The notes under the pieces are model-generated. The model was not told the DNA's origin, ran no database searches, and saw only the letters and a program-made list of their open reading frames with translations. From positions 1-63,502 of the forward strand of contig CAZVTR010000006.1 in NCBI GenBank assembly GCA_964630305.1: DNA of 63,502 bases. The letters are read 5' to 3'. Origin of the DNA: an uncultured Treponemataceae bacterium. GTDB taxonomy: Bacteria > Spirochaetota > Spirochaetia > Treponematales > UBA12059. Below, piece by piece: positions 3,882-25,560 of this stretch; positions within the stretch are counted from its first letter, which is position 1, and each line of letters starts with the position of its first letter. A program made the position numbers and the translations under genes.

Positions 3882-5072
3882 TTATTCAATTTCCCGTTTA
3901 TGATTGCGCTCGATGAGAGCTTTTAGTGTTTTTACCGGATCTTTCCGTTTTCCAAGAAGAATCATTGCTGCAATAATGTATGGTTTGAATCCCGCTTCGC
4001 GATAAGTGTCGTTGCGGTAGCGGTCAAATACGCTTGCGGCAACTTCACCCGCTTTACAGGAAACATCTGTGATATCGGCGGGGAGGCAGTGCATGTAAAG
4101 AGCTTTACCGTTTTTTGTCAGCTTCATTTTTTCTTCGGTGCATTCCCAATCGATGAATTTTGCATTGTTAGCAAGACACTGTTTTTCAAGTTCCTTTAAT
4201 CCTGCTTGATCTCCAGCATGGAGCAGCGGCACACGTTTGAGCATTACGTCATACGGTGCCCAGCTCTTGGGGTACACGATATCGGCATCTTTAAACGCTT
4301 CTTCCATGCTGTTCGAGTGAACAAATTTTCCTCCGCTTTCCTGAGCCTGTTTTTTTGCTAGTTCTACTACTTCTGGAATGAGATTGTAGCCTTCGGGATG
4401 TGCAAGGTGAACTTCCATGCCAAAACGGGTTGCAAGGCCAATAATGCCCTGCGGAACAGAGAGCGGTTTTCCGTAAGAGGGTGAGTATGCCCAGGTCATT
4501 GCAATTTTTTTGCCTTTGAGTTTATCGAGACCGCCAAAATACTCAGCGAGGTGCAATAAGTCAGCCATTGATTGTGTCGGATGATCAATATCACTCTGAA
4601 GGTTAACAATAGTGGGGCGGGATGGAAGTACAGCATCCTTTACCGCTTCATCTAAAGCTTGTGCAACTTCACGCTGGTACCGGTCGCCTTCACCGAGATA
4701 CATATCATCACGGATACCAATTGCCTCAGAAAGGAAACTTATCATAACCGCTGTTTCACGGACAGTTTCACCATGCGCAATTTGGCTCTTGCCTTCATCG
4801 AGATCTTGTACATAAAGACCAAGCAGATCGCAGGCGCTCGAAAAAGAAAACCTGGTTCGAGTCGAATTATCCCGAAAATTCGAAACAGCGATGCCAGAAT
4901 GCCAGATGCGCGGGCTCATGTTTGCTTTGCGCATTTCCTGGAGAATGCGTGCAACAAGAAATGTTGCTTCTATTTCATCCCTTGTTTTTTCCCATGTTAA
5001 CAGAAAATCCTTGTTGTACATGGCAATTTTTTTTGTCGACAGCTTGTCGAGTAAATCATTGATAACGCTCAT
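3882..5072 (-). CDS. ygeW: Knotted carbamoyltransferase YgeW
   Basis: 'FRDNSTRTRFSF', 'HPTQSMAD', 'WAYSPSYGKPLSVPQG', 'MHCLPADI'; 396 aa. Confidence 0.95.
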   Translation of the reverse strand: MSVINDLLDKLSTKKIAMYNKDFLLTWEKTRDEIEATFLVARILQEMRKANMSPRIWHSGIAVSNFRDNSTRTRFSFSSACDLLGLYVQDLDEGKSQIAHGETVRETAVMISFLSEAIGIRDDMYLGEGDRYQREVAQALDEAVKDAVLPSRPTIVNLQSDIDHPTQSMADLLHLAEYFGGLDKLKGKKIAMTWAYSPSYGKPLSVPQGIIGLATRFGMEVHLAHPEGYNLIPEVVELAKKQAQESGGKFVHSNSMEEAFKDADIVYPKSWAPYDVMLKRVPLLHAGDQAGLKELEKQCLANNAKFIDWECTEEKMKLTKNGKALYMHCLPADITDVSCKAGEVAASVFDRYRNDTYREAGFKPYIIAAMILLGKRKDPVKTLKALIERNHKREIE

Positions 5073-8003: not shown

Positions 8004-8803
8004 GGCTGAACCTCCGCATTGAGGAGTGCTTCTGCTAGTTTTTCAGCGCCAATGTATTCTTTGTATGAAGCACTGCCGCGCTGATCGGTGATAGCATGAA
8101 GCAGGGGTTGTATGCGTGTCCGAATTGTGTGTTTATCGGAAGGCAGCTGGATACCTTCAAAGAGAGCAGCAATATCGGTGCGGAGCTCTGCATGTTTGGA
8201 AAAGCCTCCGAGAACAATGCGTAGCTCTGTGAAGCTGTTGTTATGTGCGAGCTTACATGCAACGGCTGCTGTAATTGAGGAGAGATCACAGGATGTGCGC
8301 CGGAAAAAGGCAAAGTTCATAGCCAGCCCTCTGGGGTTACTGCAATGTACTTCAAGGATAATTCCCTGTGGGTTTTGCAGCCAAGTTTGGAGGGGAACAA
8401 GTGTCGTGCTCGTTGTTACTGTAAGGTTTGCATCGAGGAGGAGCAATATGGGAATGAGACTTGCACAGGATTTATTTGCCCCTATATTACCGCCAATTGT
8501 TGCTCTGTTTCTGATATTGCGGTTACTCATGGTCGCAAGCGCTTTTTTAAATATTGGAGGAACATTCGATTCCAGGAGTTCTTGAAATGTCATACCGCTT
8601 CCAATGATGATTTCAGATTCATTCACACTGATAAACTTAGGAACAATGCGGCTGATATCCATAGCTGTTTCCAGGGTTAGCGATGCGGGGTGTGCTAAAA
8701 GATAAGTTCCGCCTGCAAGCATAGGAACCTGTGGATTCTGAGTATTATAGTGAGCAGCTTCATCTATTGAAGCTGGCTGTATCAAGTTTTTTACTGTTAC
8801 CAT
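8000..8803 (-). CDS. ygfM: FAD-binding subunit of a Mo hydroxylase (YgfM-like)
   Basis: 'LAGGTYL', 'IRNRATIGGNI', 'ASLIPILLLLDA'; 4-bp overlap with xdhD. Confidence 0.8.
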   Translation of the reverse strand: MVTVKNLIQPASIDEAAHYNTQNPQVPMLAGGTYLLAHPASLTLETAMDISRIVPKFISVNESEIIIGSGMTFQELLESNVPPIFKKALATMSNRNIRNRATIGGNIGANKSCASLIPILLLLDANLTVTTSTTLVPLQTWLQNPQGIILEVHCSNPRGLAMNFAFFRRTSCDLSSITAAVACKLAHNNSFTELRIVLGGFSKHAELRTDIAALFEGIQLPSDKHTIRTRIQPLLHAITDQRGSASYKEYIGAEKLAEALLNAEVQP

Positions 8804-10197
8804 GGCAGATGCACTCCGGCTTTAGATAAGAGCTTGCGTGCTGCTTTGTTAGCAGCTTCTGCAAGTGCTTCTTCATCGATATTAACAAGTTTTCCCCGTG
8901 ATACAACAATGGAGCCATTAACTATAAGATAATCTACTCCATGATTATAACCGGAAAACAGCAATGCTGCAGGCGGATCAGACAGCGCTCCTGCATATTC
9001 AAGTTTGCTGAGATCAAACAGTGCAATATCTGCTAATGAACCTTCTTCCAGTGTGCCCGCATGTGGGAAACCGAGTATGCGAGCTCCGCCTTCTGTAGCA
9101 ATGCCAAAGATTTCTCGTGCTGTACTGCCTGTTGCGCCATATCGTACGCGCTGGAGCAAAAGAGCTTGCCGCGCTTCACCAAGCATATCTGAGCTGTCAT
9201 TAGATGCAGAGCCATCAACAGCGAGTCCGACGGGTATACCTTTATCGAGCATTTCGCGCACTCTGCAGATACCAGATGCTAACCGCATATTAGAGGCAGG
9301 GCAGTGTGCAATGCCGGTTTGATAGCGTGCTAATGTATCAAGTTCTTCATCGGTAAAGTGAATACCATGAGCGTACCACACATCCGGTCCAATAAATTCA
9401 CAATCCTCCATTACTTTGAGCGGGCGTCTACCGTAAACTCTCATGCAATATTCATCTTCGTCTGCTGTTTCTGCTAGATGTGTGTGAAGCCGAGCTCCAT
9501 ACTTGCGTGCAAGCCTCGCAGATTCTTTCATGAGCTTCTCTGATACCGAAAACGGAGAACAGGGAGCAAGCGCAAGTTTTCTCATTGCATCAGGCGCAGG
9601 ATCGTGGTAGCGCTTAATAGCTTCTTCGGATTGAATGAGTATGGTCTCTTCATCCTGGACCACAGTGTCCGGCGGCAGCCCTCCGTCTTTTTTTGAGCGA
9701 GACATAGAGCCGCGGGTTGGTGCAAAGCGTATTCCTATTTCAGACGCAGCTTTAAACTGGAGACCGGGCAGATCGTCTTTGAAATCAACAGGATAAAGAT
9801 AGTGGTGATCGGTAGAAAGTGTACAGCCTGTTTTGGCAAGCTCAGCAAGGGCTAATTTGCTCGACAGGTATACAGCCTCCTCATCAATACCTTTCCAGAT
9901 TTCATAGAGATACACGAGCCAGGTAAAGAGCTTTGCATTTTGTACAGCAGGAACATTTCGTGTAAGCGTCTGGTAAAAATGATGGTGAGTGTTTACCATA
10001 CCTGGCATGACAAGATGTTTTGATGCATCGATTGTAGTTGTTCCTGCTGGTACTGTAATGGCTGGAGCTATCTTTGCAATTCTGTTTCCATCTATGAATA
10101 TGTCGACACCATGTAAATCGGTTTCAAGCGATCCTGCTTGCTTGCCGCTTCCGTAGTGAGACTTGAGTACCCAGAAGCAGTTTTTAAGGAGTATCAC
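8797..10197 (-). CDS. 8-oxoguanine deaminase family amidohydrolase
   Basis: 'NTHHHFYQTLTR', 'APCSPFSVS', 'HTHLAET', 'HCPASNMRLASG', 'AVDGSASND'; GTG start. Confidence 0.85.
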   Translation of the reverse strand: MILLKNCFWVLKSHYGSGKQAGSLETDLHGVDIFIDGNRIAKIAPAITVPAGTTTIDASKHLVMPGMVNTHHHFYQTLTRNVPAVQNAKLFTWLVYLYEIWKGIDEEAVYLSSKLALAELAKTGCTLSTDHHYLYPVDFKDDLPGLQFKAASEIGIRFAPTRGSMSRSKKDGGLPPDTVVQDEETILIQSEEAIKRYHDPAPDAMRKLALAPCSPFSVSEKLMKESARLARKYGARLHTHLAETADEDEYCMRVYGRRPLKVMEDCEFIGPDVWYAHGIHFTDEELDTLARYQTGIAHCPASNMRLASGICRVREMLDKGIPVGLAVDGSASNDSSDMLGEARQALLLQRVRYGATGSTAREIFGIATEGGARILGFPHAGTLEEGSLADIALFDLSKLEYAGALSDPPAALLFSGYNHGVDYLIVNGSIVVSRGKLVNIDEEALAEAANKAARKLLSKAGVHLPW

Positions 10198-11651: not shown

Positions 11652-11692
11652 CGTGGTCTCCTTATGTTTACAATAATTGTATCTATCTAAAG

Positions 11693-12928
11693 TTACTGCA
11701 GTCCAAGCCCTTTTGCTGCTGATGCTATATCTTTTAGGCCGCTCCCGGTAACTAAGAGGATTACTACAGCGGATTTTGGTATTTCAGAAGAAGCTTTTTT
11801 GAAACCTGCAAGCACGGTGGCAGAACTTGGTTCTGCAAACACACCAGTTAAGCTGGCTAGTTCTTTTTGTGCTTCAAGAATTTCACTGTCAGAGACAGTC
11901 ACGGTTTTGCCGTTGTACTTGTTGAGCTGCTTGAGTGCGTGGTAACCATTTCTGGGAACATCGACAGAAATAGAATCTGCAAGCGTAGTGCTGGGAACAA
12001 CATCAAAGTACTTGCGCCAGGGATGCTCTTCGTGCGGAGCACCTGCAAACTTGTTGCTGGTTTTATCATACAGCACAGCCTTTTTATCGGATTTAAGCCG
12101 TTCATACGCACGAGCGAGCGCGCTTGAGCCTTCTGCCTGGCATGCCCACAGTGTCGGCATTTTACGAATAAATTCGAACTCATACATTTCTTCAAAACCC
12201 TTATAGAGCCCTGATAGTATGACGCCGTCACCCGCAGGAACAAATACATGATCCGGGTGGATAAGACTGCAGATTTCTAAAGCCGCAGTCTTTTTCCCCT
12301 CAATAGTGAGCGGATTGTACGCAGTATTTCTACAGAGCACATTGTGCTCTTTACAGTACGCAAGACATTCATCGAATGCTTTATCGTAGGTGCCATCTAC
12401 CTCAATAAGTTTTGCACCATACTGCAGTACTTGAATGCGTTTAGCGATAGGTGCTGTTTTTGGGAGAAAAACAGTGATATTCAACCCGGCTCCTGCGCCG
12501 ATACCGGCCATGCTGGAAGCTGCATTGCCGGTGCTGGCGAGCGCTATTTCCTTAATGCCATGCTGAAGCGCAAAACCTGCAACTAAATAGGATGCTCGAT
12601 CTTTATACGAAGCGGTTGGTTCACAGGTGTCGTCTTTGATGTAGAGCTTATCGAACCCATACTTTGTTTGAAGCCGGAATGGACTGTGCATCGGCGTATA
12701 GCCAACTTGCACTTGCGGCTGGAAATCGTATGGTACAGGGTCGGGAAGATCCTCTTCCAGTTGCAGAATTTTTTTTCGTTCTTTGGGACTAACTTCGATT
12801 GCGCATTCCAGTATACCGCGCAGAGGCTCATCTGGTTTCTGATATGCGCTGCATTCATCACAGACATAGACGCCTGGCTCGTGCGGGAACTCTTTTCCGC
12901 ACTCACTGCATCTGTACTTCCATTTCAT
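11693..12928 (-). CDS. Threonine-synthase-like fold-type II PLP enzyme
   Basis: N-terminal Zn-ribbon 'CSECG..CDECS', 'EPTASYKDR', 'ASTGNAASS', 'VPAGDGVILSG', 'AEPSSA', 'LVTGSGLKD'. Start moved to ATG 12928 (RBS GAGGAG). Confidence 0.8.
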   Translation of the reverse strand: MKWKYRCSECGKEFPHEPGVYVCDECSAYQKPDEPLRGILECAIEVSPKERKKILQLEEDLPDPVPYDFQPQVQVGYTPMHSPFRLQTKYGFDKLYIKDDTCEPTASYKDRASYLVAGFALQHGIKEIALASTGNAASSMAGIGAGAGLNITVFLPKTAPIAKRIQVLQYGAKLIEVDGTYDKAFDECLAYCKEHNVLCRNTAYNPLTIEGKKTAALEICSLIHPDHVFVPAGDGVILSGLYKGFEEMYEFEFIRKMPTLWACQAEGSSALARAYERLKSDKKAVLYDKTSNKFAGAPHEEHPWRKYFDVVPSTTLADSISVDVPRNGYHALKQLNKYNGKTVTVSDSEILEAQKELASLTGVFAEPSSATVLAGFKKASSEIPKSAVVILLVTGSGLKDIASAAKGLGLQ

Positions 12929-12932
12929 GTGG

Positions 12933-14141
12933 TTACTCCTCGATAAAATAGGGTAGCGCTGCATAAAAAGCTGCAGCTCTCCATAAATCATCTACCCGGG
13001 TAACCTCATTTGGTGCATGCGCTTGTGCTTCATCTCCTGGTCCAAAACCGATGCAGGGGATACCATGGCGGCCTGCAACAGCTACACAGTTTGTGGAAAA
13101 AGTCCATTTATCAACTACAGGTTTACTTCCAAATACTGCTTCATGTGCTTTAATGCCGCTCTGCACGAGCGGATGTGTCTCGGGGAATTTCCATGTTGGG
13201 AAATAGAGCTCCTGAGAGTATTGTTTACCGGTCCAGCTGGGAGTATTGTAATCGGGGATAAGAATCTCAGCGTCGGTAATACCAGCCTTTGCAAGAGCAT
13301 CCTGTACCTGCTTAACAGCAATTTCTTTGGTTTCACCCCAGGTGAGCCTTCTGTCGAGGTAGAGCATAGCCTGATCCGGGACAGCGCACTGTGAGGGACC
13401 GTGAACATCGATTTTAGAAACAACGACGGTACCCTTTCCAAGGAACCTGTCATCGTCGGGTTGGAGTTCGTCATTGAGCTTTTCTATTGCGAGTGCAGCT
13501 CGTGCTGCTTTATACGCAGCAGATATGCCGCGTTCGGGGGCAGAACCGTGACAGGATAAGCCTTTAATGTGGATTTCCATTTCCATTCTACCGCGATGGC
13601 CGCGATAGAGCTTGAGGGATGTCGGTTCAGTGGAGACAAAATAATCCGGTTTAACGTGTTCTTCTTCAATAAGATACTTCCAGCACATGCCATCACAGTC
13701 TTCTTCGATAATCGTGAATGAAAACCAGACGCTGAATTTGCCATTGTATGCAAGTTCCTTAAGAATCTTTCCCGCTGCAAGCATAGATGCTGCGCCGCCG
13801 GTTTGATCACTGGTACCGCGGCCATAGACTAAACCATTTTCAATGTCTCCAGAAAAAGGGTCTTTCTTCCACTGAGCGGGATCGCCAATACCAACCGTAT
13901 CGATATGAGCATCAATAACAAGCTTTTTAGGACCGTTTCCTACACGGGCAAGCAGATTGCCCAGGCCATCGATTTTTACTTCATCGAAACCAATTTCTTC
14001 ACAAATGGTTTTGAGCAGTATAATGCGATCTTTTTCCTTGTTGCTCATTGCAGGCACTTTAATGATTCGTGAAAGTGTCTGTGCTGTCCAATCTTTGTAA
14101 CTTTCTGCGAGTGTGCGGATAGTTTCTGCTGGTGTGTTCAT
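12933..14141 (-). CDS. ygeY: YgeY family M20 metallohydrolase
   Basis: 'DAHIDTV', 'GRGTSDQTGG', 'EEDCDG', 'RGHRGRME', 'FSTNCVA', 'HAPNE'. Confidence 0.92.
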   Translation of the reverse strand: MNTPAETIRTLAESYKDWTAQTLSRIIKVPAMSNKEKDRIILLKTICEEIGFDEVKIDGLGNLLARVGNGPKKLVIDAHIDTVGIGDPAQWKKDPFSGDIENGLVYGRGTSDQTGGAASMLAAGKILKELAYNGKFSVWFSFTIIEEDCDGMCWKYLIEEEHVKPDYFVSTEPTSLKLYRGHRGRMEMEIHIKGLSCHGSAPERGISAAYKAARAALAIEKLNDELQPDDDRFLGKGTVVVSKIDVHGPSQCAVPDQAMLYLDRRLTWGETKEIAVKQVQDALAKAGITDAEILIPDYNTPSWTGKQYSQELYFPTWKFPETHPLVQSGIKAHEAVFGSKPVVDKWTFSTNCVAVAGRHGIPCIGFGPGDEAQAHAPNEVTRVDDLWRAAAFYAALPYFIEE

Positions 14142-15436
14142 AATGCCTCCATTGCTTTCCAGAGCCTTTGTGCCTGGTTTTGTGTTTCTTGTACGAGATT
14201 TTTTGTATCGAGCTGGATTATTCTGTTTTTCATTACAAGCTTACCTGCGATCATTGTTCCTGAAATGTATGCAGGGGAAAGTCCAAATGCCATGTGACCC
14301 ATAAAGTTTTCGGAAATAAGCGGTGTCGGGGGTTCATAGTCCCAAAAGGTAATATCAGCAGCGTACCCTGGAGCTATATAGCCAAACTTGTTATCGGGGA
14401 AGTACCGATTTAGGATTTTATTGCCATTCCAGAGCATACCGATGAAATCATTCATGTATAGTGGTCCGCCTGCATCCCGATGTTTATAGAAAGCGCATAT
14501 AGCTTCAGTAACCATGTCACTTCCGATGCCATCAGTGCCAAGTGCAACATTTTTATAACTTGGCAGAGCTTCGTTGTATCCAACATGGTTATTCATATTG
14601 GAACGGGCATTGTGAATAAGGAAAGCATCATGAGCATTGAGCTTTTCGATTTCAGAAGCTGTTAGGTAGATGCCGTGTGCAATAATAGTTTTAGAAGACA
14701 AAAGTTCAGCCCGTTCAAGCCGATCAACAATGTCGAGTCCATACTGATACCGTGAATGCACAGCATCATATTTATCTTCTGCAGCATGGATATGGAGCCC
14801 TGATTCCGTTTCGCGGACAGCCTCGCTCAGCATAGCCAGTGTTGTGTTGTTAATAGTAAAGAGTGCATGAGCGCCAATTGATCCTCTCAGGAGGGGATGG
14901 TGAGCGGTTTTTTTTGCGAATCGAATGTTTTCGGCAATCCCTGCTTCTGCGCCTGCATTGCCATTGCGATCAGTTGTCTCATAACAGAGAACACCGCGGA
15001 GTCCGGTGAGCTCAAACCCTTCCGCAATGCGATCGAGCGATGCATCGATACAGTTCGGACTCGCATGATGATCAATTACAGCGGTAACACCGTGCCGGAT
15101 AGCATGCAGTGCGCCGGCAATACCGCTGGCGCGTATCATATCGGCGTCGAGTGCTCTATCGAGACGCCACCAGAGATTATTGAGCTGCTGCACAAAATCT
15201 TTTGACGGAGGAACAGGTGCCATGAGTCCGCGGGCCAGTGCAGAGTAAAAGTGATTATGCGAACACACAAGACCAGGGCTGATATACGGGCTTGTGATAC
15301 TCTCAGCGTCCTGATAGCGGGCTTTGAGTCCTTTGCCGACTTCTTTGATATGCGTGCCTTCGATGAGTACATCGAGAGGTTCTGATACCGATATGGGGTT
15401 AAAATTAAGTATCTTTGTGTTTTCTATGAGTATCAT
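14138..15436 (-). CDS. ssnA: SsnA amidohydrolase
   Basis: 'CSHNHFYSALARG', 'WWRLDRALD', 'IDHHASP', 'HNARSNMNNHVG', 'LGTDGIGSDM'. Confidence 0.92.
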   Translation of the reverse strand: MILIENTKILNFNPISVSEPLDVLIEGTHIKEVGKGLKARYQDAESITSPYISPGLVCSHNHFYSALARGLMAPVPPSKDFVQQLNNLWWRLDRALDADMIRASGIAGALHAIRHGVTAVIDHHASPNCIDASLDRIAEGFELTGLRGVLCYETTDRNGNAGAEAGIAENIRFAKKTAHHPLLRGSIGAHALFTINNTTLAMLSEAVRETESGLHIHAAEDKYDAVHSRYQYGLDIVDRLERAELLSSKTIIAHGIYLTASEIEKLNAHDAFLIHNARSNMNNHVGYNEALPSYKNVALGTDGIGSDMVTEAICAFYKHRDAGGPLYMNDFIGMLWNGNKILNRYFPDNKFGYIAPGYAADITFWDYEPPTPLISENFMGHMAFGLSPAYISGTMIAGKLVMKNRIIQLDTKNLVQETQNQAQRLWKAMEAL

Positions 15437-18400
15437 CGGTTTTGCTCCTTGTTGTACAGCTCGGTTCGAGCAAGCAAGTATCGGTGGTTTGTGAAAAGCT
15501 CTCGCGCAGCAAACAAAAAGGGCGCTGATTGAGCGTCACCTGTTGTGTTCCATGCTTCAAATGTCAGTACAGCGGGTTTGGCTTTTTGTTCGGTTCGCAG
15601 AATGAGATTGGGTTGTTCCGCTTTTCCAAAAAATGCAAAACCGGTGTTGGAACTTGCTTCAAGTTCCTGTTTAGTGTCAAAGAGCGTGATTTTGTCTTTG
15701 CAAGGTTCGCCGTTGTAGGGACAAAAAAAGGAACAGTTGCCGCATTCATTGCAGAGTGCATCGATGTGGAGAATTTGAATAGGCTGCTTAAATGGACCCC
15801 CCGGTATCAAGGTTACAGGCAATGCAAAGTTAGCACGGTTGGGACAAGTTTCTACACAACGTAAACACATAACATCACAGGAAAGGCAGCGCTGAGCTTC
15901 ATTGGTTATAAAATTTTTATCACGAGGGTCGGTTTTAGTTTGATAAGCGCCTCGTTTCATGCGGATTAGTTCGAGTTCTGGATTGGTATGCGGTGTTTCT
16001 GTTAGGCTGTCAACCGGATCTATGCCGGCAATGCGCAGTATTGCAAAGGCTGCTTTTTTGCCGTCGGCTTCGGCAGCAATAATGCTTGAGGGGCCGCGTC
16101 GTAAATCTCCAATGACAAATACTTCTTCGTTTGAAAGACTCATCATGGTTTCTGGATTGCAGAGCGGGTATCCTCGTTCATGGGTTACCTTAAAATGATC
16201 AAGCAGCTGCGTATCAGCTGTTTCTCCGATTGCAGAAATAATGAGGTCACAGGGTTTGAGCTCGGTAATATCAGATGGATACGGGACACGTCTGCCGTCA
16301 TCGCCAGGTTTTCCGAGCAGCATTTTCCGAATTACTATATAGGGGCGTTCTTTTTTGATAACGGCTTCAGGGAGAGAGAGTTCAAGCAGCGTAACACCAT
16401 CGGCAAATGCTGCCTCAAGTTCTTCTTTGTCGGCAGGCATTTCTTCTCTCGTCCTTCGGTATGCAATGTATACATCAGGGCGCCAGGGAAGCCGCGCGGC
16501 TATGCGCGCCGCATCCATTGCGGTATTCCCGCCGCCTATGATAATTATTGTATTTGCGTTTTGATATTGCTCCATAAAGCTTCGGGTTTTTTCTCGTTCT
16601 AGATGGAGTGTTTTTAATAGATCCAAGGCAGTAATTACCGGAATAGTGCAATTTTTTATGTCGATTGGTTTAGATACAGTTGCTCCGCTGGCAAGCACAA
16701 TAGAGGTATAGCCTTGCTCCTTAAGCTCACTGTATGTTGGGTTTGCATTTTTAATAAAAACAGCACCTAATGCCTGAATACGTTCGATATCTTTTTGAAG
16801 CGACTCTTTTGTAATACGGAATTTAGGTATCACGGAAGCAGGTATACCGCCGATGCTGGATGTTTGTTCAAAGACGGTAACAGGATAGCCATTGAGCGCA
16901 AGGTAATGAGCGCATGCAAGTCCGGCAGGTCCTGATCCAAGTATTGCTGTTTTACCCTTATCGAGTACGGGTACTTTTGTTTTTGGCTTGCTGTGAGCTG
17001 TCAGAGCACAGCGATGTTTGATGTCGCGTATTTCAATTGGACCCTCATAGTCATTGCGCGAACACGAGTACATGCACTGGTGATCACAGAGGATACCCGT
17101 AATGTTCGGCAAAGGGTTATCTTTATAGATGATTTCGAGACCTATATCGGCCTTATGTTCTGCAAGTGCGCGAATATACTGAGGTGCTTTTTGCATTGCG
17201 GGGCATGCTTCGATACAGGGTGCTGCAAAACAATCGGATAGCGGCAACTCTTTGTTAATGTACACGGTACCTGTTTTATATGAGCGCTGATAGTATGGTT
17301 TGTTAAAAACACTGTCTGCGAGTAAATGGATGTGTTCAGAATCTGGTTGGGATGCATGCTCTTCTAAAAGTCCTTCTGTGGCTGTTTCTGCAATAGTGAG
17401 GAGCCGCTGGTAACCACCGGGTTTGAGGATATCAGTTACAACGGTGAGCGGCCCAAGTCCAGCTTCGATACATTGCTTAGCATTATATGAAGCTATTCCT
17501 CCGCAAAACGAAAGCGCACTTAGATTAGGAAGCGAATCGATAAGTTCTGATGCTAGCCGTATTGTAATAGGGAAGAGCGCACGTCCAGACATATATCGTT
17601 CTGCACCGGGAAGTCTGTTTGTATTGTTGATGTTAGCCAGTGTATTAGAGAGCTTAACACCAAACCAAGTTCCTTCATTGTTGGCAAGCTGTGACAGATT
17701 TTCAATGAGCTTAATTGCATCTTCAAATTGGAGATCATGTTCAAAGGTTTCGCGTTTTAATTCAATGTTTGTCCAGCCCAGCTTATTGAGGATGCTTCGC
17801 ACTTTAAGGAAACCCAGCAAAGTTGGATTAAGCTTGATGTATGTAGGTAATTTTTTCTCTTTAATGAGATAGCTTCCGATCTGCTCAATTTCATGAGAGG
17901 GACAGCCATGCATTGTAGAGAGCGTTATCGAATGAATTGGCGAATCTGAAAGGTTTGCTATGTATGCCTGTGCCTTTTCCCTAACGTGTTCACCAAAAAT
18001 GGCCTGACAACTGGAACTGGTTAAAGCATCAAGTGTTTCAGCAATAATAGTTTTCATTATTGGGAGTTTCCAGGGATTACGCATACCTTCAATAAAGGAG
18101 TCTACTTTTTGTGATTTTATGCCTTCCAGCGTATAACCGGCTGAAATATTAAAAATAAAATCTTGAGCAGGAATATCCATCAGTATTGAGAGGGTTTTTA
18201 TAGCAATCCATCCTCGAAGATACTCTTCCATGGCTTCTTCGACGAGGAGTTCTGTTGACCACTCGACATTGTGTCCTTCATCGAGCGCATCGATGCATGG
18301 TTTATCGAGTTCGAGACGATCATTTATTTGTACTGTTTTAAGCTCGAATACGCGAGCGCTGCAGAGCCAGCCCGCAATGAGATTAGGGGCAATCTGTGTG

Positions 18401-18597
18401 TGCGGCCCAGCTGCGAGTCCCGCAGGAATCGAAATGCGGGTGTTATAAACGGTAAATCCGGGAGATTTTTGCACCAGTACCTTCATTGCATCGATGCAAA
18501 ACGCAGGTATTTCAAAAATTGTTTTTTTTGCCCGATATTCACCGAACATATGTTCAAAGAGTGCTCTCATTGACGTTGTTTTCATAATTTTGCTCAT
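15433..18597 (-). CDS. ygfK: YgfK flavin/Fe-S oxidoreductase ('putative selenate reductase')
   Basis: 'AAGPHTQIAPN', 'LKTVQINDRL', 'GVKLSNTL', 'GSGPAGLA', 'GGGNTAMDAAR', C-terminal ferredoxin Cys motifs. Start set to ATG 18597 (ATGA overlap with the upstream stop). Confidence 0.92.
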   Translation of the reverse strand: MSKIMKTTSMRALFEHMFGEYRAKKTIFEIPAFCIDAMKVLVQKSPGFTVYNTRISIPAGLAAGPHTQIAPNLIAGWLCSARVFELKTVQINDRLELDKPCIDALDEGHNVEWSTELLVEEAMEEYLRGWIAIKTLSILMDIPAQDFIFNISAGYTLEGIKSQKVDSFIEGMRNPWKLPIMKTIIAETLDALTSSSCQAIFGEHVREKAQAYIANLSDSPIHSITLSTMHGCPSHEIEQIGSYLIKEKKLPTYIKLNPTLLGFLKVRSILNKLGWTNIELKRETFEHDLQFEDAIKLIENLSQLANNEGTWFGVKLSNTLANINNTNRLPGAERYMSGRALFPITIRLASELIDSLPNLSALSFCGGIASYNAKQCIEAGLGPLTVVTDILKPGGYQRLLTIAETATEGLLEEHASQPDSEHIHLLADSVFNKPYYQRSYKTGTVYINKELPLSDCFAAPCIEACPAMQKAPQYIRALAEHKADIGLEIIYKDNPLPNITGILCDHQCMYSCSRNDYEGPIEIRDIKHRCALTAHSKPKTKVPVLDKGKTAILGSGPAGLACAHYLALNGYPVTVFEQTSSIGGIPASVIPKFRITKESLQKDIERIQALGAVFIKNANPTYSELKEQGYTSIVLASGATVSKPIDIKNCTIPVITALDLLKTLHLEREKTRSFMEQYQNANTIIIIGGGNTAMDAARIAARLPWRPDVYIAYRRTREEMPADKEELEAAFADGVTLLELSLPEAVIKKERPYIVIRKMLLGKPGDDGRRVPYPSDITELKPCDLIISAIGETADTQLLDHFKVTHERGYPLCNPETMMSLSNEEVFVIGDLRRGPSSIIAAEADGKKAAFAILRIAGIDPVDSLTETPHTNPELELIRMKRGAYQTKTDPRDKNFITNEAQRCLSCDVMCLRCVETCPNRANFALPVTLIPGGPFKQPIQILHIDALCNECGNCSFFCPYNGEPCKDKITLFDTKQELEASSNTGFAFFGKAEQPNLILRTEQKAKPAVLTFEAWNTTGDAQSAPFLFAARELFTNHRYLLARTELYNKEQNR

Positions 18598-20036
18598 GCG
18601 TACCCCCACTGCAGATGTTTTCCATACCCTGGTTGAACAGTAATGCAATTTTGAAGATTGTCTGAATTACTTCGAGCATCCCAGACAATTGTGCCGCGAA
18701 CCATGGTTATTTCTATAAAACCATCAAAAGTCTTTCCTTGAAATGGTGTTACTGTTCCTTTACTGAGCAATTTATCGCCCTGAACGGTGTATTTTTTTTG
18801 CGGATGAACAAATACCAGATCAGCATCTTTCCCTGGTTCTATCGAGCCTTTACCGTTATCAAGTCCGTAGCGGCGAGCTGCGTTTCCTGCAGTGAGAGCC
18901 GTGAACTGCTTTAGGCTGATCCTGCCTGACTGGTATCCTTCTGAATACAAATAAGGAAAGAGTGTCCCTGTGCCTGGTATACCGCCGTAATCAGTCCAGA
19001 TAGAGCCGGTCTGTTTTTCTTCATGCGGTGCAGGAGCATGGTCGCTTGCAACAAATGAAAATACGTTTCGGCTTATAAGGCGCCAGAGTTTTTCGGTTTG
19101 TCCCAATGATTTAACAGGAGGAGCGGTTTTAAGTGCTGAACCGTGTGTTGCAAAATCTTCACGTGAAAATGCCAGGTAGTGCGGGCATGTCTCTGCCGTA
19201 GCGCCAGCATTGACTGCTAGCTCTGCAGCTTCTGCAGTGCCGACATGTACAATGTGAAGTGCTTGTGTGTAACCCCAGGCAAGAGCGCAGGCCGATGCAA
19301 CCGCAGAGAGCTCTGCAAGCTCACAGCGTGCATTGACATAATCATCCCACTCCGGAGAGCGGTTTTCTTGTTCTGCACGAGCTTTCCAGTACTGGGTTGC
19401 AGGCGCAATAAAAAGCGGATCTTCTGCGTGGAGGAGAAGCGGTCGTTTGAGTTCTGCAGATTTCACGAGCGCTTTTCTAAAGCGAGCATGATCCACAGCA
19501 GTAAAGGTGTCCATACCTGAGATGAAGTAGCACTTAAACCCGACGACATAGGGTGCGAGAGCTTCCATTGCTTCCAGCATGATGTCTTCGTGATGAGCGG
19601 TGGTGACTGTTTGTAATGAGCCAGGGAATGATGCGAGGATGGTTTCAGGGAGCATTCCCGAAACACCGCCAAAGAGTGCAAAATCGATAATGCTCTGTGA
19701 TCGTATGTGCGAAAGCTTGTACAAAAGCGCTTCTTTTGATATGACCGGCGGAATGCTCGTGCATGGCATATCAATTACCGTTGTTATACCGCCTCGTGCT
19801 GCAGCCATAGAACCATGGTAAAAATCTTCTCGGTGTGTAAAGCCAGGTTCATCAAAATGCACATGGGGATCGATGGCCCCAGGGAAAACTTCATAGCCTT
19901 CTGCTTCTAAAACTGTTTCATTGCTGGCTTCGATGGAATCGGCAATAGCTTTTATTTTGCCATTGGCAATATGAATATCTCTTTTTTGAAGCTGGTCTTG
20001 ATTGGGCAGTGCGACACGGCAATTTTTGATAATCAT
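18594..20036 (-). CDS. Allantoinase-like cyclic amidohydrolase (AllB/dihydroorotase superfamily)
   Basis: 'GAIDPHVHFDEPG', 'GGITTVIDMP', 'GFKCYF', 'HAED', 'ETCPHYL', 'KTAPPVK', 'ASDHAP', 'YGGIPG'. Motifs resemble AllB more than HyuA/dihydropyrimidinase. Confidence 0.75.
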   Translation of the reverse strand: MIIKNCRVALPNQDQLQKRDIHIANGKIKAIADSIEASNETVLEAEGYEVFPGAIDPHVHFDEPGFTHREDFYHGSMAAARGGITTVIDMPCTSIPPVISKEALLYKLSHIRSQSIIDFALFGGVSGMLPETILASFPGSLQTVTTAHHEDIMLEAMEALAPYVVGFKCYFISGMDTFTAVDHARFRKALVKSAELKRPLLLHAEDPLFIAPATQYWKARAEQENRSPEWDDYVNARCELAELSAVASACALAWGYTQALHIVHVGTAEAAELAVNAGATAETCPHYLAFSREDFATHGSALKTAPPVKSLGQTEKLWRLISRNVFSFVASDHAPAPHEEKQTGSIWTDYGGIPGTGTLFPYLYSEGYQSGRISLKQFTALTAGNAARRYGLDNGKGSIEPGKDADLVFVHPQKKYTVQGDKLLSKGTVTPFQGKTFDGFIEITMVRGTIVWDARSNSDNLQNCITVQPGYGKHLQWGYA

Positions 20037-22354
20037 TATTGTTCCCCTTTCGGAGTGTGTGTGGTAACTGTAGCCGGGCTCACAACTAAATTGTCTAGAT
20101 ATCGCAGAGCTTTTTCGGGAGTCATTGGAAGATCATAGAAGAGTGTCCCTGTTGGGTTAGCGGCATGGAGCGCATCGAGTACAGCAAAATAACCGGCGAT
20201 GCCATACATGAATGGCGGTTCTCCTATGGCCTTCGAATTAGCGACTGTGTGCGGATTTGGTGCATCGATGATTTCAACAATCATCTCTGGCATAAAGTGA
20301 GCGTCAGGAACTTTATATGTAGAGAGCGTGTTTGCCAAAAGCCGGCCATCAGCGCTAAAGCAGAGCTCTTCTAAAGCTGACCAGCCAAGACCCTGTGCAA
20401 ATGCTCCTTCTATCTGCCCAATATCGATATCAGGTGCGATAGAGTTAGCAAGGTCATGAACAATCCATGCTGTATCAAAATGGTATGTGCCTTTGAGCAT
20501 ATCGACTGTTGCAGTAACTATTGCACAGCCGTATACATGATACGCAAATGGTCTGCCGTATTCTTTTTCCATGTCATAAAATAAATCTGGGGTGGCATAA
20601 AAAGCATGTGCGCTTAAATCGATTCTGCTTTCATATGCTTTTTTCACAATATCTTCAAATGAATAGCCTGTATCCTGTCCGGCTTTATCGGATGGTTTAA
20701 CATATACGAGCCTGCAATTAGAAAAATCGAGCTCTGTTTTAATGGTGTGAAGTATCTCTGCTGCAAGCAACAAAAGCCGCTCTTTTATTTGTTCTGCTGC
20801 GAGGCATGCAGCAGCGCCGTTAATATCGGTACCCGTGCTCGCAGCAGTGGGCTGTGTATTAGCAACGGTAGATGTTCTTGTAGTTTCAATTTTAACACGA
20901 GAATCCGGTATGCCTAAACAGCGCGCGGTGAGCAGCGCTATCTTGCGGTTTACTCCCTGTCCCATTTCAACAGCGCCGGTGCTTACGCTTACAGAACCGT
21001 CATGGTATACATGTACCAGTGCACCGCCTTGATTCATCATTAGTTTAGTAAAACTGATACCAAAGCAGATGGGTATACCTGCTGCGCCTTTTTTATAACG
21101 GCGGTTTTTGCTGTTAAACTCGTCAATTGCAGAACGGAGTTCACGCCAGTTTGCTAGCTCCATGCAGCGGGTTACTGTTGCTTCTGCACGTGCATCTTCA
21201 AGCCGCATACCGTAGTGCGTTCGATCATTAGTATGCACAAGATTTTTTAGCCTGAGTTCCATAGGATCCATGTTGAGTGCGTTTGCTGCTGCTTCTAGTG
21301 CGCTTTCTATGACAAAAAATCCCTGCGGACCGCCAAAGCCGCGGAAAGCGGTAAAGGGTACCAGATTTGTTCTGCACATAATGCCAGTTACTTTGACATT
21401 CGGGATGTGATACGCACCGCACGCATGAAACAATGTTCGCGGAATGATTGCTGGAGAAAGATCGGTAGCAGCGCCTGAATTCTGGTAATATACAGCTTCA
21501 AAAGCTCGTATGGTTCCGTCTTTAGAAAGTCCTATAGTAAAATCGCTTGAGTAGGGGTGACGCTTCCCGGTCGCCTGTAAGTCATCGCGCCGGTTAAGAT
21601 AGAGCTTTACGGGCCGTTTTGTTACATAGGCACCGAGCGCTGCAAGTGCTGCCCAGGCATTAGCTTGTTCCTCTTTGCCGCCAAAAGCACCGCCGAGGCG
21701 CCTTGTTTCGATTTCTATTTTATGCATCGGCAGACCGAGAATACGCGCAACAATCTGCTGAACGAGCGAAGGAGATTGTGTGCCTGCAATGATCCTCATG
21801 CCTCCCGAATCTTCCGGAACAGCTATGGCTCCTTGAGTTTCCAGGTAAACATGTTCCTGACCGCCCGAATCTACTCTTCCCGTTATAACAATATCGCAAT
21901 CTGCCAACGCCTGCTGTGTGTCGCCGCATTGCTGAATGCGGGGTTTGAGAATAACCTTACCTTGTGCATATGCCTCACGCGGATCGGTTATTGCGGGAAG
22001 CTCTTTTATATTAGTTATGGTAATTTTACTTAATGCTTTTCGCGCAAGGCTTTTTGTTTCGGCAAGAACAAGCGCCAGTACCTCTCCCTGATAGTGCCAT
22101 TCGTGTTCTGCAAGCAGAGGTTCATCATCCATGACCATGCCAAGTTCATTTTTCCCCGGTACATCCTGTGCGGTAAGTATCCGGACGGAAGGATGCACAG
22201 CGAGTGCTTCTGAGACATCAAGACCTGAATATGTTCCGTGAGCTGTTGGGGATAGAAGCGGCACTGCATGAAGCAGTGTTGATGCTTCCGGAAGATCATC
22301 AATATAGAGTGTAGTGCCAGTTACATGCGGAATACTGTCGGTATTGTAGTTCAT
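20036..22354 (-). CDS. xdhB: Xanthine dehydrogenase molybdopterin-binding subunit (Rhodobacter/Pseudomonas type)
   Basis: 'GGQEHVYLE', 'RRLGGAFGGKE', 'GKRHPY', 'AFRGFGGPQG', 'VEMGQG', 'GQIEGAFAQG', 'SKAIGEPPF'. Confidence 0.93.
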   Translation of the reverse strand: MNYNTDSIPHVTGTTLYIDDLPEASTLLHAVPLLSPTAHGTYSGLDVSEALAVHPSVRILTAQDVPGKNELGMVMDDEPLLAEHEWHYQGEVLALVLAETKSLARKALSKITITNIKELPAITDPREAYAQGKVILKPRIQQCGDTQQALADCDIVITGRVDSGGQEHVYLETQGAIAVPEDSGGMRIIAGTQSPSLVQQIVARILGLPMHKIEIETRRLGGAFGGKEEQANAWAALAALGAYVTKRPVKLYLNRRDDLQATGKRHPYSSDFTIGLSKDGTIRAFEAVYYQNSGAATDLSPAIIPRTLFHACGAYHIPNVKVTGIMCRTNLVPFTAFRGFGGPQGFFVIESALEAAANALNMDPMELRLKNLVHTNDRTHYGMRLEDARAEATVTRCMELANWRELRSAIDEFNSKNRRYKKGAAGIPICFGISFTKLMMNQGGALVHVYHDGSVSVSTGAVEMGQGVNRKIALLTARCLGIPDSRVKIETTRTSTVANTQPTAASTGTDINGAAACLAAEQIKERLLLLAAEILHTIKTELDFSNCRLVYVKPSDKAGQDTGYSFEDIVKKAYESRIDLSAHAFYATPDLFYDMEKEYGRPFAYHVYGCAIVTATVDMLKGTYHFDTAWIVHDLANSIAPDIDIGQIEGAFAQGLGWSALEELCFSADGRLLANTLSTYKVPDAHFMPEMIVEIIDAPNPHTVANSKAIGEPPFMYGIAGYFAVLDALHAANPTGTLFYDLPMTPEKALRYLDNLVVSPATVTTHTPKGEQ

Positions 22355-23754
22355 GGCAGCAATTCCTCCTCAAGTTCAGGCCATAACCGTAGAGCATGCG
22401 CAAGCACCAATCTGAAAACCAAACGTTTACGGTATTCCGAGGTACCTCGTACATCGCTAATTGGCGTCGCACTAGTTTGTGCTTTCTGAGCTAGATGCTG
22501 TACGATCTCAGAAGAAGATTTCTTTCCTATTATAAGAGCAGATGCTTCTTCTAGTAAAAGCGGTACTGGTGCTACTCCTCCAAACGAAAGTCTGGCTTGT
22601 TGTATTGTGCCATCATCAGCTTCTTCTACTGCGAATGCTGAGTTTACCGTGGCAATATCGAGGTGTTCTCGTTTAGATACTTTTTCAAAGCTGATTCTTA
22701 GTGGCTTTGCTGGGATCACAATAGCATCAATTTGCTCATCTGTATTTATTGCTAGTTTTTTATAACTGATAAAAGCTTTCTGGAGCGGCTGAGATCGTTT
22801 TGTGCCGCGACTAGTTTTTATGCTGAGCTCAGCACCCAGAGCAAGAAGCATAACTGTCATATCGGCAATGGGTGAAGCATTGGCAATATTGCCAGCAAGC
22901 GTAGCACGGTTGCGGATAGGGATGCTTGCAATGTATTGTTCATACTGTTCTATGCCCGGGAAAGTTGTTCGTATATGTTCTGAATCAAAGAAGTCGCGAA
23001 TAGTGACAGCAGAACCAATGATGAGCTTTCCATGTTCATGACGTATTTGATGAGCGGGCGGTTCGAGATCGGTGTAGCGCGGAACAAGTTCCTGGTCAGG
23101 ATCCGGGTTTTGCACAAAAAAGTCAGTACCGCCGCCCAGTGTTCTTGTTGTGGGAATAGTTTCCCGTATCGGTTCGGGAATTGAATGCATGGTGTCTGCA
23201 AGAGCGCGGGGAAGTATGCCTTCCTGTGCAAGAAAAGCCAGCCTGGTATGGAAATCGGCGGGCACTTCAGGAAAGGACTGCACCAGTTTAGCTGCAGCTC
23301 TGCGGATACTGCCGTAACCTGTGCACCGGCAGAGGTTCCCGTCGATTGCTGTGATTGCATGGCGGTAATCGATGGGGCCGCCTTCAATAAACAGTGCGGT
23401 GAGTGCTACAACGAAGCCAGGACTGCAAAAACCGCACTGGCTTGCTCCTGTTTCTAAAAATGCCTGCATTACCGGAGTAAGCCCAGCCTCGGCAATGCCT
23501 TCAATGGTGATAATATGTTTACCATCGAGATCGGAAAGTCCAAGCGTGCAAGATGTGACAGCATGATACACGGGTTTACCATCAATGGTTTCTCCCAGTA
23601 TAACCATGCATGCGCCACAATCGCCTTCGCGGCAGCCCTCTTTAGTTCCTTTGAGCTGGGCAGTATTGCGTATCCAATCAAGAGCAGGCTGTTCCCTATC
23701 GAGCGTTATCGTATGCTCTTGTGTGTTCAATCTAAACCGTATTGTTCTGTGCAT
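22351..23754 (-). CDS. xdhA: Xanthine dehydrogenase small subunit (2x[2Fe-2S] + FAD)
   Basis: 'GTKEGCREGDCGAC', 'SQCGFCSPG', 'GNLCRCTGY', 'GGGTD', 'IRNRATLAGNIANASPIAD', 'KVSKREHLDI'. Confidence 0.92.
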   Translation of the reverse strand: MHRTIRFRLNTQEHTITLDREQPALDWIRNTAQLKGTKEGCREGDCGACMVILGETIDGKPVYHAVTSCTLGLSDLDGKHIITIEGIAEAGLTPVMQAFLETGASQCGFCSPGFVVALTALFIEGGPIDYRHAITAIDGNLCRCTGYGSIRRAAAKLVQSFPEVPADFHTRLAFLAQEGILPRALADTMHSIPEPIRETIPTTRTLGGGTDFFVQNPDPDQELVPRYTDLEPPAHQIRHEHGKLIIGSAVTIRDFFDSEHIRTTFPGIEQYEQYIASIPIRNRATLAGNIANASPIADMTVMLLALGAELSIKTSRGTKRSQPLQKAFISYKKLAINTDEQIDAIVIPAKPLRISFEKVSKREHLDIATVNSAFAVEEADDGTIQQARLSFGGVAPVPLLLEEASALIIGKKSSSEIVQHLAQKAQTSATPISDVRGTSEYRKRLVFRLVLAHALRLWPELEEELLP

Positions 23755-23757
23755 ACG

Positions 23758-25497
23758 TTATTCCTCTACAAAAAGATCAACAAGTTTAAACGACTCAACA
23801 TCAACGAGACCTTGATCGGTGAGCTTGAGTGATGGTATTACCGGCAGAGCCATAAACGATAACAGCATAAGCGGGGATACTTTTTGAATTCCCTCTTGTT
23901 CAAAGTATGCAGAAAATCTTTCAAGCGATGCTAATACTTCCGATATGGATTTATCGCTCATAAGCCCAGCAATAGGCAGAGGAAGTTCAGCAATTATGGT
24001 ATCCCGATCGGTGATAACATAGCCGCCTTTCATTGCATTTAATCGTTTTACTGCTTTAAAAATGGAAGTGTCATCGGCTCCTGCAACGATAATGTTATGA
24101 GAATCATGGCTTACGGTTGAACCGATTGCTCCGTGCTTTAAACCAAGCCCGCGGATAAAGCCCTTGCCGATTGATCCAGTGCCTCCGTGTCGTTCTATAA
24201 CAAAAAGCTTTAACAAATCGCGAGCTGGATCTGCAACACACAAACCATTGTCTACCGCAGGTTCCAGTATCGATTTTCCCGTCACGATTGAGCCGGGCAC
24301 AGCTTCGATGACGCGGATTTTTTTACCAATATATGGAATGGCAAACGCCGATTCATCGAGCCACTTAACATTGACAGAGTCTCTAACGCGGGGGAGCGAG
24401 CCAGCAGTGCTAAATAATTCTGTCCATGCTGATGTTTTTTCCCCGTGTTCTGCAATGATTGTTCCTTGCTTAATAACTTTTTTTACGGAAAATGGCTCAT
24501 TGTGGTCAAAAACAATAAAGTTTGCTTTGTAGCCGGGAGCAATAGAGCCGCAGCGCCGCAGTCCAAAGTAGAGCGAAGGATTATGCGCCGCCATTCGCAG
24601 TGCATCTATAAGCGGGATTCCCTTTTCCTGCAGAATTCGGACAGCTGCATCAATGTGGCCCTCTTTGACAATATCATGCGGGTGTCTGTCATCGGTACAG
24701 AGCATCATGCGGTGTACGGTGTCATGGTTCATTGCAGGAATAAGGTGCTCAAGATCACGAGCAGATGATCCAAACCTAGCCATTATCCACATACCTTTTG
24801 ATAACTTTTCCAGCGCTTCTTCTGGCGTTGTGGCCTCGTGGTCACTCCTGATGCCAGAGATGACATACGCTGAAAGTTCTTTGCCAGATAGACCCGGTGA
24901 ATGTCCGTCAATTACTTTGCCATTTTCCCAAAATAGAGAAAGCTTATCACGGAGCTGCAGATCTCCTGAGAGAATTCCTGGATAGTTCATCACTTCGCCC
25001 AAGCCAAGTATGCGAGGCTCCCGTGTGAACGGCGCAAGATCCGATGCATAGAGCGATGCTCCTGCTGTATCAAACGATGTCGCGGGGACACAGCTGGGTG
25101 CCATGAAAAAAATCTCAAGAGGTATCCCCTCAGACGCTTTGAGCATCCAGTGTATGCCGTCATAACCGAGCACATTAGCGATTTCATGCGGATCAGCAAT
25201 AACTGTTAGTGTTCCATGCGGCGTAACCAGGTTGCAAAATTCCCGAGGATGCACCAGGCTTGATTCTATATGAACATGGGCATCGACAAGGCCCGGGCTT
25301 ACACATAAGCCGCCGAGATCAATACATTGTTTTACAGGTAAATTTTCACTGATGCCTACAATATAACCTTTGTATACGGTGATAGAAGCAGGCCCACGTA
25401 TCGTATTAGTAAAAAAATCGGTATAGAAGCAGTTAGTATAGCAAATATCAGAAGATATTTTCCCCAGAGCTGCTTCAATTATTTCATAAGGAAGCAT
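23758..25497 (-). CDS. ade: Adenine deaminase
   Basis: 'DAHVHIESS', 'DPHEIANV', 'LGEVMNYPG', 'DGHSPG', 'SDHEA', 'CTDDRHP', 'SHDSHN', 'LSFMALPVIPSLKLTD'. Confidence 0.95.
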   Translation of the reverse strand: MLPYEIIEAALGKISSDICYTNCFYTDFFTNTIRGPASITVYKGYIVGISENLPVKQCIDLGGLCVSPGLVDAHVHIESSLVHPREFCNLVTPHGTLTVIADPHEIANVLGYDGIHWMLKASEGIPLEIFFMAPSCVPATSFDTAGASLYASDLAPFTREPRILGLGEVMNYPGILSGDLQLRDKLSLFWENGKVIDGHSPGLSGKELSAYVISGIRSDHEATTPEEALEKLSKGMWIMARFGSSARDLEHLIPAMNHDTVHRMMLCTDDRHPHDIVKEGHIDAAVRILQEKGIPLIDALRMAAHNPSLYFGLRRCGSIAPGYKANFIVFDHNEPFSVKKVIKQGTIIAEHGEKTSAWTELFSTAGSLPRVRDSVNVKWLDESAFAIPYIGKKIRVIEAVPGSIVTGKSILEPAVDNGLCVADPARDLLKLFVIERHGGTGSIGKGFIRGLGLKHGAIGSTVSHDSHNIIVAGADDTSIFKAVKRLNAMKGGYVITDRDTIIAELPLPIAGLMSDKSISEVLASLERFSAYFEQEGIQKVSPLMLLSFMALPVIPSLKLTDQGLVDVESFKLVDLFVEE

Positions 25498-25532: not shown

Positions 25533-25560
25533 ATTGTAACACATATTCTATGGCTGTCAA
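25533..25560 (-). promoter_or_regulatory. Sigma-70 promoter of the purine operon
   Basis: On the minus strand: TTGACA (25560-25555), 16-nt spacer ending in TGT (extended -10), TACAAT (25538-25533); about 35 nt upstream of the ade ATG with RBS GAGG. Confidence 0.75.

Follow-up and report, generated by a model that had tools for sequence, protein, structure and literature searches.

A relay of two molybdenum (Mo) hydroxylases, in which one enzyme forms urate and a second one reduces it, is known from Escherichia coli and Clostridium sporogenes. The purified XdhD-YgfM of E. coli, supplied with reduced nicotinamide adenine dinucleotide (NADH), converts urate to 2,8-dioxopurine; an E. coli xdhA mutant is unable to use xanthine, and in an xdhD mutant urate formed from xanthine builds up (Li et al., 2025, PMC12507026). 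In C. sporogenes, mutation of the xanthine dehydrogenase (XDH) blocks the oxidation of hypoxanthine and xanthine, mutation of the DOPDH blocks the reduction of urate, and tracing with 13C-hypoxanthine supports the relay; the gut strains with the cluster all carry SelD and YqeBC, and mutation of selD leaves the DOPDH inactive (Liu et al., 2025, bioRxiv 10.1101/2025.04.24.650524). We analyzed a 63,502-nt stretch of DNA (the window) from an uncultured member of the Spirochaetota, in which a two-subunit XDH, XdhAB, is encoded together with XdhD-YgfM in a 13-gene operon. The operon is most probably one for purine fermentation, in which XdhAB would make urate and XdhD-YgfM would reduce the urate to 2,8-dioxopurine. 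The relay that an earlier note on this DNA had proposed is right in kind, and was already demonstrated in both homologous systems in 2025.

Such a pairing of an oxidizing and a reducing Mo hydroxylase lets anaerobes shift the oxo groups of purines from C6 to C2 and C8, enabling the ring to be reduced and opened. The relay itself is known; what the window adds is the presence, beyond gut bacteria, of a compact, conserved operon in spirochaetes that live freely in the environment (hot spring, mat and wastewater), and an indication that the upstream enzyme can be a sulfido-type, eukaryote-like XdhAB. The window is contig C6 of assembly G000 (78 contigs, 2.34 Mb in total; marker-gene completeness 96.7%), and its stretch was found in metagenomes from hot springs (the probable source), microbial mats, wastewater, bioreactors and sludge.

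The locus differs from the studied systems in its two-subunit XdhAB, its one fused operon, its replaced terminal chemistry with enzymes dependent on pyridoxal phosphate (PLP), and the selenium and XdhC genes, none of which were found in the genus. As in E. coli K-12, a predicted urate-forming XDH (xdhABC in E. coli) stands beside the genes ygeW...ygfK-ssnA-ygfM-xdhD, with HyuA and YgeY. The E. coli XDH has the three subunits XdhABC, whereas that of the window has two, and the two XDHs are not orthologous (XdhB has only 27% identity to E. coli XdhA). In E. coli the genes are distributed over several transcription units on both strands, unlike the single operon of the window. The E. coli locus also has yqeB, yqeC, mocA, yqeA, ygeX and transporters; in the window two other PLP enzymes stand in for YgeX, and yqeB, yqeC and selD were not found in the genus. 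The likeness to C. sporogenes XDH and DOPDH (XdhAC) is that an XDH makes urate and a second Mo hydroxylase makes 2,8-dioxopurine, which for the window is predicted from the genes. The clostridial enzymes differ in that both need SelD and that DOPDH is without a subunit of the YgfM type, which binds flavin adenine dinucleotide (FAD).

Structure and conservation of the 13-gene operon

All 13 genes lie on the minus strand, from ade (25497) through ygeW (3882), with intergenic gaps of -59 to +41 nt, and all 13 reading frames are intact. In the direction of transcription (5' to 3') the order is ade-xdhA-xdhB-hyuA-ygfK-ssnA-ygeY-PLP1-PLP2-deaminase-ygfM-xdhD-ygeW. ATGA overlaps join xdhA to xdhB and ygfM to xdhD, a TAATG overlap joins xdhB to hyuA, and ade and xdhA are spaced by 3 nt; the operon junctions are predicted to be translationally coupled. 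The xdhA and xdhB frames were recovered on the minus strand at the coordinates given in the earlier note (Table 1), which had also placed XdhAB and XdhD/YgfM in one operon. This placement was borne out by 13 same-strand genes with tight gaps or overlaps, and because the identical order of all 13 genes recurred in 7/7 fetched relative loci, from two spirochaete families, the case for a shared operon is far beyond chance. The operon probably starts at a promoter-like site upstream of ade (Table 1). Known RNA control was also looked for, riboswitches included, and the whole window gave no Rfam match at or above a family's gathering score.

Orthologues of XdhB, with 55-92% identity, were found in 35 of the 36 genomes sampled from the family and in 6/6 of a second family, whereas three other families of the order had none; the distribution of XdhD among the sampled genomes was the same. 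A further 16 genomes encode XdhB and XdhD on one contig and one strand, with ~15 kb between them. XdhB, for which the earlier note had raised a possible horizontal origin, was placed in a tree together with the best global representatives. The spirochaete XdhBs formed a single clade (support 100) that divided along family lines; their nearest outside sisters were metagenome proteins, and the spirochaete clade stood outside the clade that contains the XDHs of Vibrio and Glutamicibacter, fused Myxococcota XDHs and eukaryotic XDHs. A recent horizontal origin from a donor of the Rhodobacter/Pseudomonas type was ruled out, because XdhB is monophyletic, keeps the family split, is widely distributed and has outside relatives of at most 48% identity. 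XdhB appears to be vertically inherited, and the operon appears to be old in the clade.

Comparison of G000 with its congener G001 yielded ratios of nonsynonymous to synonymous divergence (dN/dS) of 0.04-0.10 for the operon genes, including 0.04 for XdhD and 0.05 for XdhB, at dS ~1. The stem branch leading to the window's genus was unusually long (0.6 for XdhD, 0.42 for XdhB and 0.6 in the concatenated XdhB+XdhD tree), and the amino-acid composition of G000 and G001 deviated from the rest of the alignment; thermal adaptation, genome reduction or altered cofactor chemistry may lie behind this.

Active sites and predicted pathway

XdhA is composed of two [2Fe-2S] domains and a FAD domain, and XdhB of a hammerhead domain and two domains that bind the molybdenum cofactor (Moco), as assigned with Pfam. 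Among solved structures, the best match of XdhA was Rhodobacter capsulatus XdhA, aligned end to end (residues 5-454 against 3-447, 192 bits); for XdhB, bovine XDH scored best (512 bits), followed by R. capsulatus XdhB (488 bits). The earlier note had described XdhAB as a two-subunit enzyme of the Rhodobacter type, which agrees with the domain set and with full-length alignment to R. capsulatus chains A and B (PDB 1JRO, 2W3R); the catalytic residues are also the same. The R. capsulatus enzyme is nevertheless a distant relative, as the scores of both subunits indicate, and it requires XdhC, which was not found in the window's genus. Eukaryotic xanthine oxidoreductase (XOR) has its domains fused into one chain, unlike the two subunits encoded in the window, and receives its sulfur from a MOSC-domain Moco sulfurase. 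Around residues ~525-565, XdhB contains a stretch of ~25-35 residues with no counterpart in bovine XDH or in the g10/g11 orthologues, whose match was split into residues 2-530 and 565-758; this is probably a variable surface loop.

Every classical XOR motif that had been quoted for XdhB was present and aligned with bovine XDH: the protein contains SGGQEH, GGAFGGKEE, IPRTLFH, FRGFGGPQG and IGEPP, and also GISFT and PTAAS. In the HMMER alignment, GGQEH, GGKEE, IPRTLFH, FRGFGGPQG and IGEPP hold what we take to be, in bovine numbering, the equivalents of Gln767, Glu802, Arg880, Phe914 and Glu1261; GISFT presumably holds those of Phe1009 and Thr1010, and PTAAS those of Ala1078 and Ala1079. All of these bovine residues are conserved in XdhB. 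Its active site appears to be a complete XOR set, with both catalytic and substrate-binding residues.

XdhD had 49% identity to E. coli XdhD in an alignment of 955 residues (residues 1-952), which covers its full length. The motifs by which XdhD had been told apart from XdhB, GAKQD and YQGYGAPKG, were both present, the first within GFGAKQD; these and KSVSEIS are shared with E. coli XdhD, as the patterns GFGxKQD, YQGYGAPKG and KSxSEI. Glu604 (in LGEGR) aligned with E. coli Glu606 (in IGEGK), which has been proposed to orient urate (Li et al., 2025, PMC12507026). XdhD is a predicted orthologue of the E. coli urate reductase, and the gene for its YgfM-type FAD subunit directly adjoins xdhD.

One of the enzymes could have a different substrate, with XdhAB acting on another N-heterocycle or on an 8-oxo- or 2-oxopurine, or with XdhD acting on a purine other than urate. 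This would be in keeping with the scores of XdhA, XdhB and YgfM under the NCBIfam equivalog cut-offs, with KLMM in XdhB at the equivalents of bovine 1011-1014, which line the substrate channel and read VPFL in the bovine enzyme, and with the non-canonical parts of the operon (an 8-oxoguanine-deaminase homologue, an allantoinase-like HyuA and two PLP enzymes replacing YgeX). Such a substrate is most improbable, since XdhB retains all of the xanthine-contact residues of bovine XOR (Glu802, Arg880, Phe914, Phe1009, Thr1010, Glu1261 and Gln767), XdhD has the active-site motifs of the E. coli enzyme and the Glu606 equivalent, and the 2,8-dioxopurine-specific YgfK and SsnA scored above their cut-offs.

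From the gene content we infer the substrates, direction and cofactor use of the successive steps, and a redox coupling through the NAD(P) pool. Ade would convert adenine to hypoxanthine. XdhAB would hydroxylate C2 and then C8, taking hypoxanthine through xanthine to urate and releasing 2 x 2 electrons, which would pass from Mo through the two [2Fe-2S] clusters and FAD to a pyridine nucleotide as the presumed acceptor. XdhD-YgfM would carry out the same chemistry in reverse at C6, consuming two electrons in the conversion of urate to 2,8-dioxopurine, and YgfK would consume two electrons in forming the dihydro product. SsnA, the HyuA-like enzyme, YgeW, YgeY and the two PLP enzymes would then disassemble the ring by hydrolytic and PLP-dependent steps. 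The proposal that XdhAB leads to urate and that XdhD-YgfM reduces it at C6 is supported by the XOR active site, the XdhD match and the context of ade, YgfK, SsnA, YgeY and YgeW.

The four electrons that XdhAB would release from hypoxanthine are exactly the demand of XdhD-YgfM and YgfK. By atom bookkeeping, hypoxanthine plus H2O would equal the composition of dihydro-2,8-dioxopurine, so that the use of adenine or hypoxanthine would be redox-neutral, while xanthine would need two and urate four external electrons. The recycling of electrons within the operon's pathway would be stoichiometrically sound, with coupling via the NAD(P) pool; there is no hint that electrons pass directly from one protein to the other.

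XdhAB could also run mainly in the reductive direction, from urate to xanthine, as part of a salvage or side branch, in which case the two Mo enzymes would compete for urate and not act in series. Xanthine dehydrogenases are reversible; a second route in gut bacteria, from urate to xanthine via XdhA, is cited from earlier work by Li et al. (2025, PMC12507026), and the C. sporogenes DOPDH is active both ways (Liu et al., 2025, bioRxiv 10.1101/2025.04.24.650524). A mainly reductive XdhAB is nevertheless very unlikely here, since xdhAB directly follows ade and the operon holds a second aminopurine deaminase, both of which would supply pre-urate substrates, and the operon is without a salvage phosphoribosyltransferase. 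The XDH mutants of E. coli and C. sporogenes, moreover, are blocked for the use of xanthine or hypoxanthine and not of urate.

Several points weigh against the relay from XdhAB to XdhD-YgfM in this organism. XdhB and XdhA scored under the cut-offs of their NCBIfam equivalog families (TIGR02965, 763.1 bits against 849.5; TIGR02963, 313.4 against 467), and YgfM fell far under that of TIGR03312 (Table 1). Despite these scores, TIGR02965 and TIGR02963 were the best-scoring families by far for XdhB and XdhA, and XdhAB appears to be a divergent lineage of the XdhAB/eukaryotic XOR family and not a strict equivalog. In one activated-sludge RNA library, contigs at least 99% identical were found over ygeW, xdhD, the PLP genes, ygeY, hyuA, xdhB and xdhA; this support consists of short contigs only, none of them bridging two genes by 31 nt or more, DNA carry-over is possible, and transcription cannot be proven from it. 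XdhC, YqeB, YqeC and SelD, which the studied homologues need for activity, were not found in the genus (G000 and G001), and G000 is without detectable moaA-E and moeA; arcC (carbamate kinase) is likewise missing.

Selenium and maturation genes

Gene absences were argued only where several near-complete genomes agreed. SelD, YqeB and YqeC were found in none of G000, G001, G008, G019 and G009, and SelD and YqeB were not found in G020 and G024 (completeness: G001 99%, G008 99%, G019 98%, G009 98%, G020 88% and G024 87%). A tblastn search of G000 with the E. coli YqeB, YqeC and SelD proteins gave no match. PF02625 (XdhC_CoxI) was not found in G000 and G001 of genus g1, or in the g8 genomes (0/3), and was present in 26/36 genomes of the family. 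PF13478 (XdhC_C) was not found in G000, G001, G008 and G019, and G009 had a weak match below the cut-off. A MOSC-type Moco sulfurase would be an alternative maturation route; no MOSC domain was found in the G000 assembly. A Sec-type SelD and YqeB are present in the majority of the remaining relatives that share the operon, and in the positive control, G021, SelD was present and yqeC and yqeB stood together.

MoaC and MoeA were present in the selenium-gene-free relatives (G001, G008, G019, G009, G020 and G024). Because the congener G001 and nearly all relatives carry MoaC, MoeA and arcC, the absence of the Moco genes and arcC in G000 is read as an assembly gap, and an organism unable to make Moco or to use carbamoyl phosphate was ruled out. 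The G000 assembly probably misses at least two loci, and absences in G000 alone are not trustworthy.

In the concatenated XdhB+XdhD tree, the selenium-gene-free lineages stood at four separate places, and parsimony required four changes. The dN/dS of XdhD in these lineages was 0.03-0.14 at dS up to 1-2, like or below that of the lineages with selenium genes. No column of the XdhD alignment separated sequences by the presence of selenium genes; a single column was non-uniform (position 207) and was unusable as a signature. Because purifying selection on XdhD persists in the selenium-gene-free lineages, both enzymes appear to work independently of the selenium and XdhC machinery known so far.

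Loss of the selenium and XdhC-type maturation genes might instead have left the Mo enzymes of the genus as inactive relics. As would then be expected, searches of G000 and G001 for SelD, YqeB, YqeC, XdhC_CoxI and XdhC_C came back empty, and C. sporogenes DOPDH is inactive when it comes from a selD mutant (Liu et al., 2025, bioRxiv 10.1101/2025.04.24.650524). Such decay is extremely unlikely in view of the intact frames (13/13), the dN/dS values of XdhD and XdhB between the two congeners, which do not exceed those of the selenium-gene relatives, and the occurrence of the same gene combination in at least three further lineages.

With functional enzymes in these lineages as the preferred reading, we tentatively suggest, at somewhat less than even chance, that in several spirochaete lineages both Mo enzymes mature and work without selenium or a chaperone of the XdhC/YqeB type, that the pathway is not intrinsically selenium-dependent, and that some other route installs the terminal sulfido (or other) Mo ligand. 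This suggestion is supported by absences in 6-7 genomes of three genera, five of them at least 96% complete, by close relatives that have the same operon and carry all of these genes, and by the four separate losses inferred together with strong purifying selection on XdhD. If the absence of selenium and chaperone genes is real, the obligate selenium dependence claimed for the pathway would be lineage-specific, and the proteins would be of use in building urate-degrading strains whose cofactor needs are simpler and in probing the choice between sulfur and selenium in molybdenum hydroxylases.

Partial YqeB matches were seen in some relatives (G003:C19:24869-25348, G029:C11:456686-457201 and G014:C266:3615-4094), covering the first ~160-172 of 256 profile positions at sub-cut-off scores; G029 also gave no SelD. 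The loci may be maturation genes in the middle of decay. In most of the relatives that have SelD, its gene contains one in-frame TGA (e.g., G021:C9:259180-260112 and G047:C7:118590-119522), and this SelD is predicted to be a selenocysteine protein itself.

Other operon enzymes and surroundings

YgfK, SsnA, YgeY and YgeW scored above their family cut-offs, and the HyuA slot is occupied by an allantoinase-like amidohydrolase (Table 1). No YgeX orthologue was found in the G000 genome by tblastn; its position is taken by two PALP-fold enzymes (10194-12991), and the pair is kept in 7/7 relatives examined. The enzyme of the 8-oxoguanine-deaminase family is encoded directly upstream of ygfM-xdhD and may feed an aminopurine into the pathway; the operon has no GuaD-type guanine deaminase.

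Table 1. Coordinates in the window of the operon's genes and promoter-like site, in the order of transcription
Feature	Position	Strand	Basis
Promoter-like site	25533..25560	-	TTGACA, 16 nt, TG-extended TACAAT; 11/12 matches; 99-nt gap upstream of ade; consensus match alone
ade, predicted adenine deaminase (adenine to hypoxanthine), operon gene 1	23758..25497	-	TIGR01178, 575 bits (cut-off 472.5); Adenine_deam_C
xdhA, small subunit, 467 aa	22351..23754	-	Pfam Fer2, Fer2_2, FAD_binding_5, CO_deh_flav_C
xdhB, molybdopterin subunit, 772 aa	20036..22354	-	Ald_Xan_dh_C, MoCoBD_1, MoCoBD_2
hyuA slot, cyclic amidohydrolase, allantoinase/dihydroorotase-like	18594..20036	-	TIGR03178, 335 bits, just under cut-off; 27% identity to E. 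coli HyuA
ygfK, predicted 2,8-dioxopurine reductase (Fe-S flavoenzyme)	15433..18648	-	TIGR03315, 968 bits (cut-off 835); 40% identity to E. coli YgfK
ssnA, predicted ring-opening amidohydrolase	14138..15436	-	NF005540, 514 bits (cut-off 444); 48% identity to E. coli SsnA
ygeY, M20 hydrolase, predicted to cleave the ureido group	12933..14141	-	NF009555, 498 bits (cut-off 321); 48% identity to E. coli YgeY
PLP enzyme 1, ThrC-like (threonine-synthase-like), 432 aa, in place of YgeX	11693..12991	-	PALP domain; ThrC matches sub-threshold only
PLP enzyme 2, CysK-like, 485 aa	10194..11651	-	PALP domain; weak cysK-family matches; 72-95% identity in relatives
8-oxoguanine-deaminase-family amidohydrolase	8797..10197	-	NF006055, 596 bits (cut-off 532); 27% identity to E. 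coli GuaD
ygfM, predicted urate reductase FAD subunit, 267 aa	8000..8803	-	TIGR03312, 79 bits (cut-off 241.5); 27% identity to E. coli YgfM
xdhD, fused [2Fe-2S] and molybdopterin subunit	5112..8003	-	TIGR03313, 1122.8 bits (cut-off 1101.9)
ygeW, knotted carbamoyltransferase, last operon gene	3882..5072	-	NF005538, 681 bits (cut-off 453); 65% identity to E. coli YgeW

The listed starts of two genes overlap the preceding gene, that of ygfK (TTG, 18648) by 55 nt and that of PLP enzyme 1 (ATG, 12991) by 59 nt. The family match of YgfK starts at residue 19, and matches of both proteins generally start ~18-24 residues downstream of the listed start; the true starts are probably downstream of the listed ones.

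The flanks of the operon (a GGDEF cyclase, a sugar operon, plsC and ygiQ) are functionally unrelated. Upstream of the operon, on the same strand, lies an Mbeg1-like (PF11187) gene at 25597-26706, whose position is kept in the congener G001 only and in 0/6 other relatives.

A third Mo hydroxylase of the genome (G000:C48:7698-11078, L059) was considered as a part of the system and was ruled out on account of its sugar-nucleotide and pyrimidine-biosynthesis surroundings and a TIGR02965 score of only 112 bits. This enzyme has three subunits, the Mo subunit of 694 aa, the Fe-S subunit of 162 aa and the FAD subunit of 274 aa, and its genes adjoin pseB/pseC-like genes, a 16S rRNA methyltransferase gene and pyrF/pyrE.

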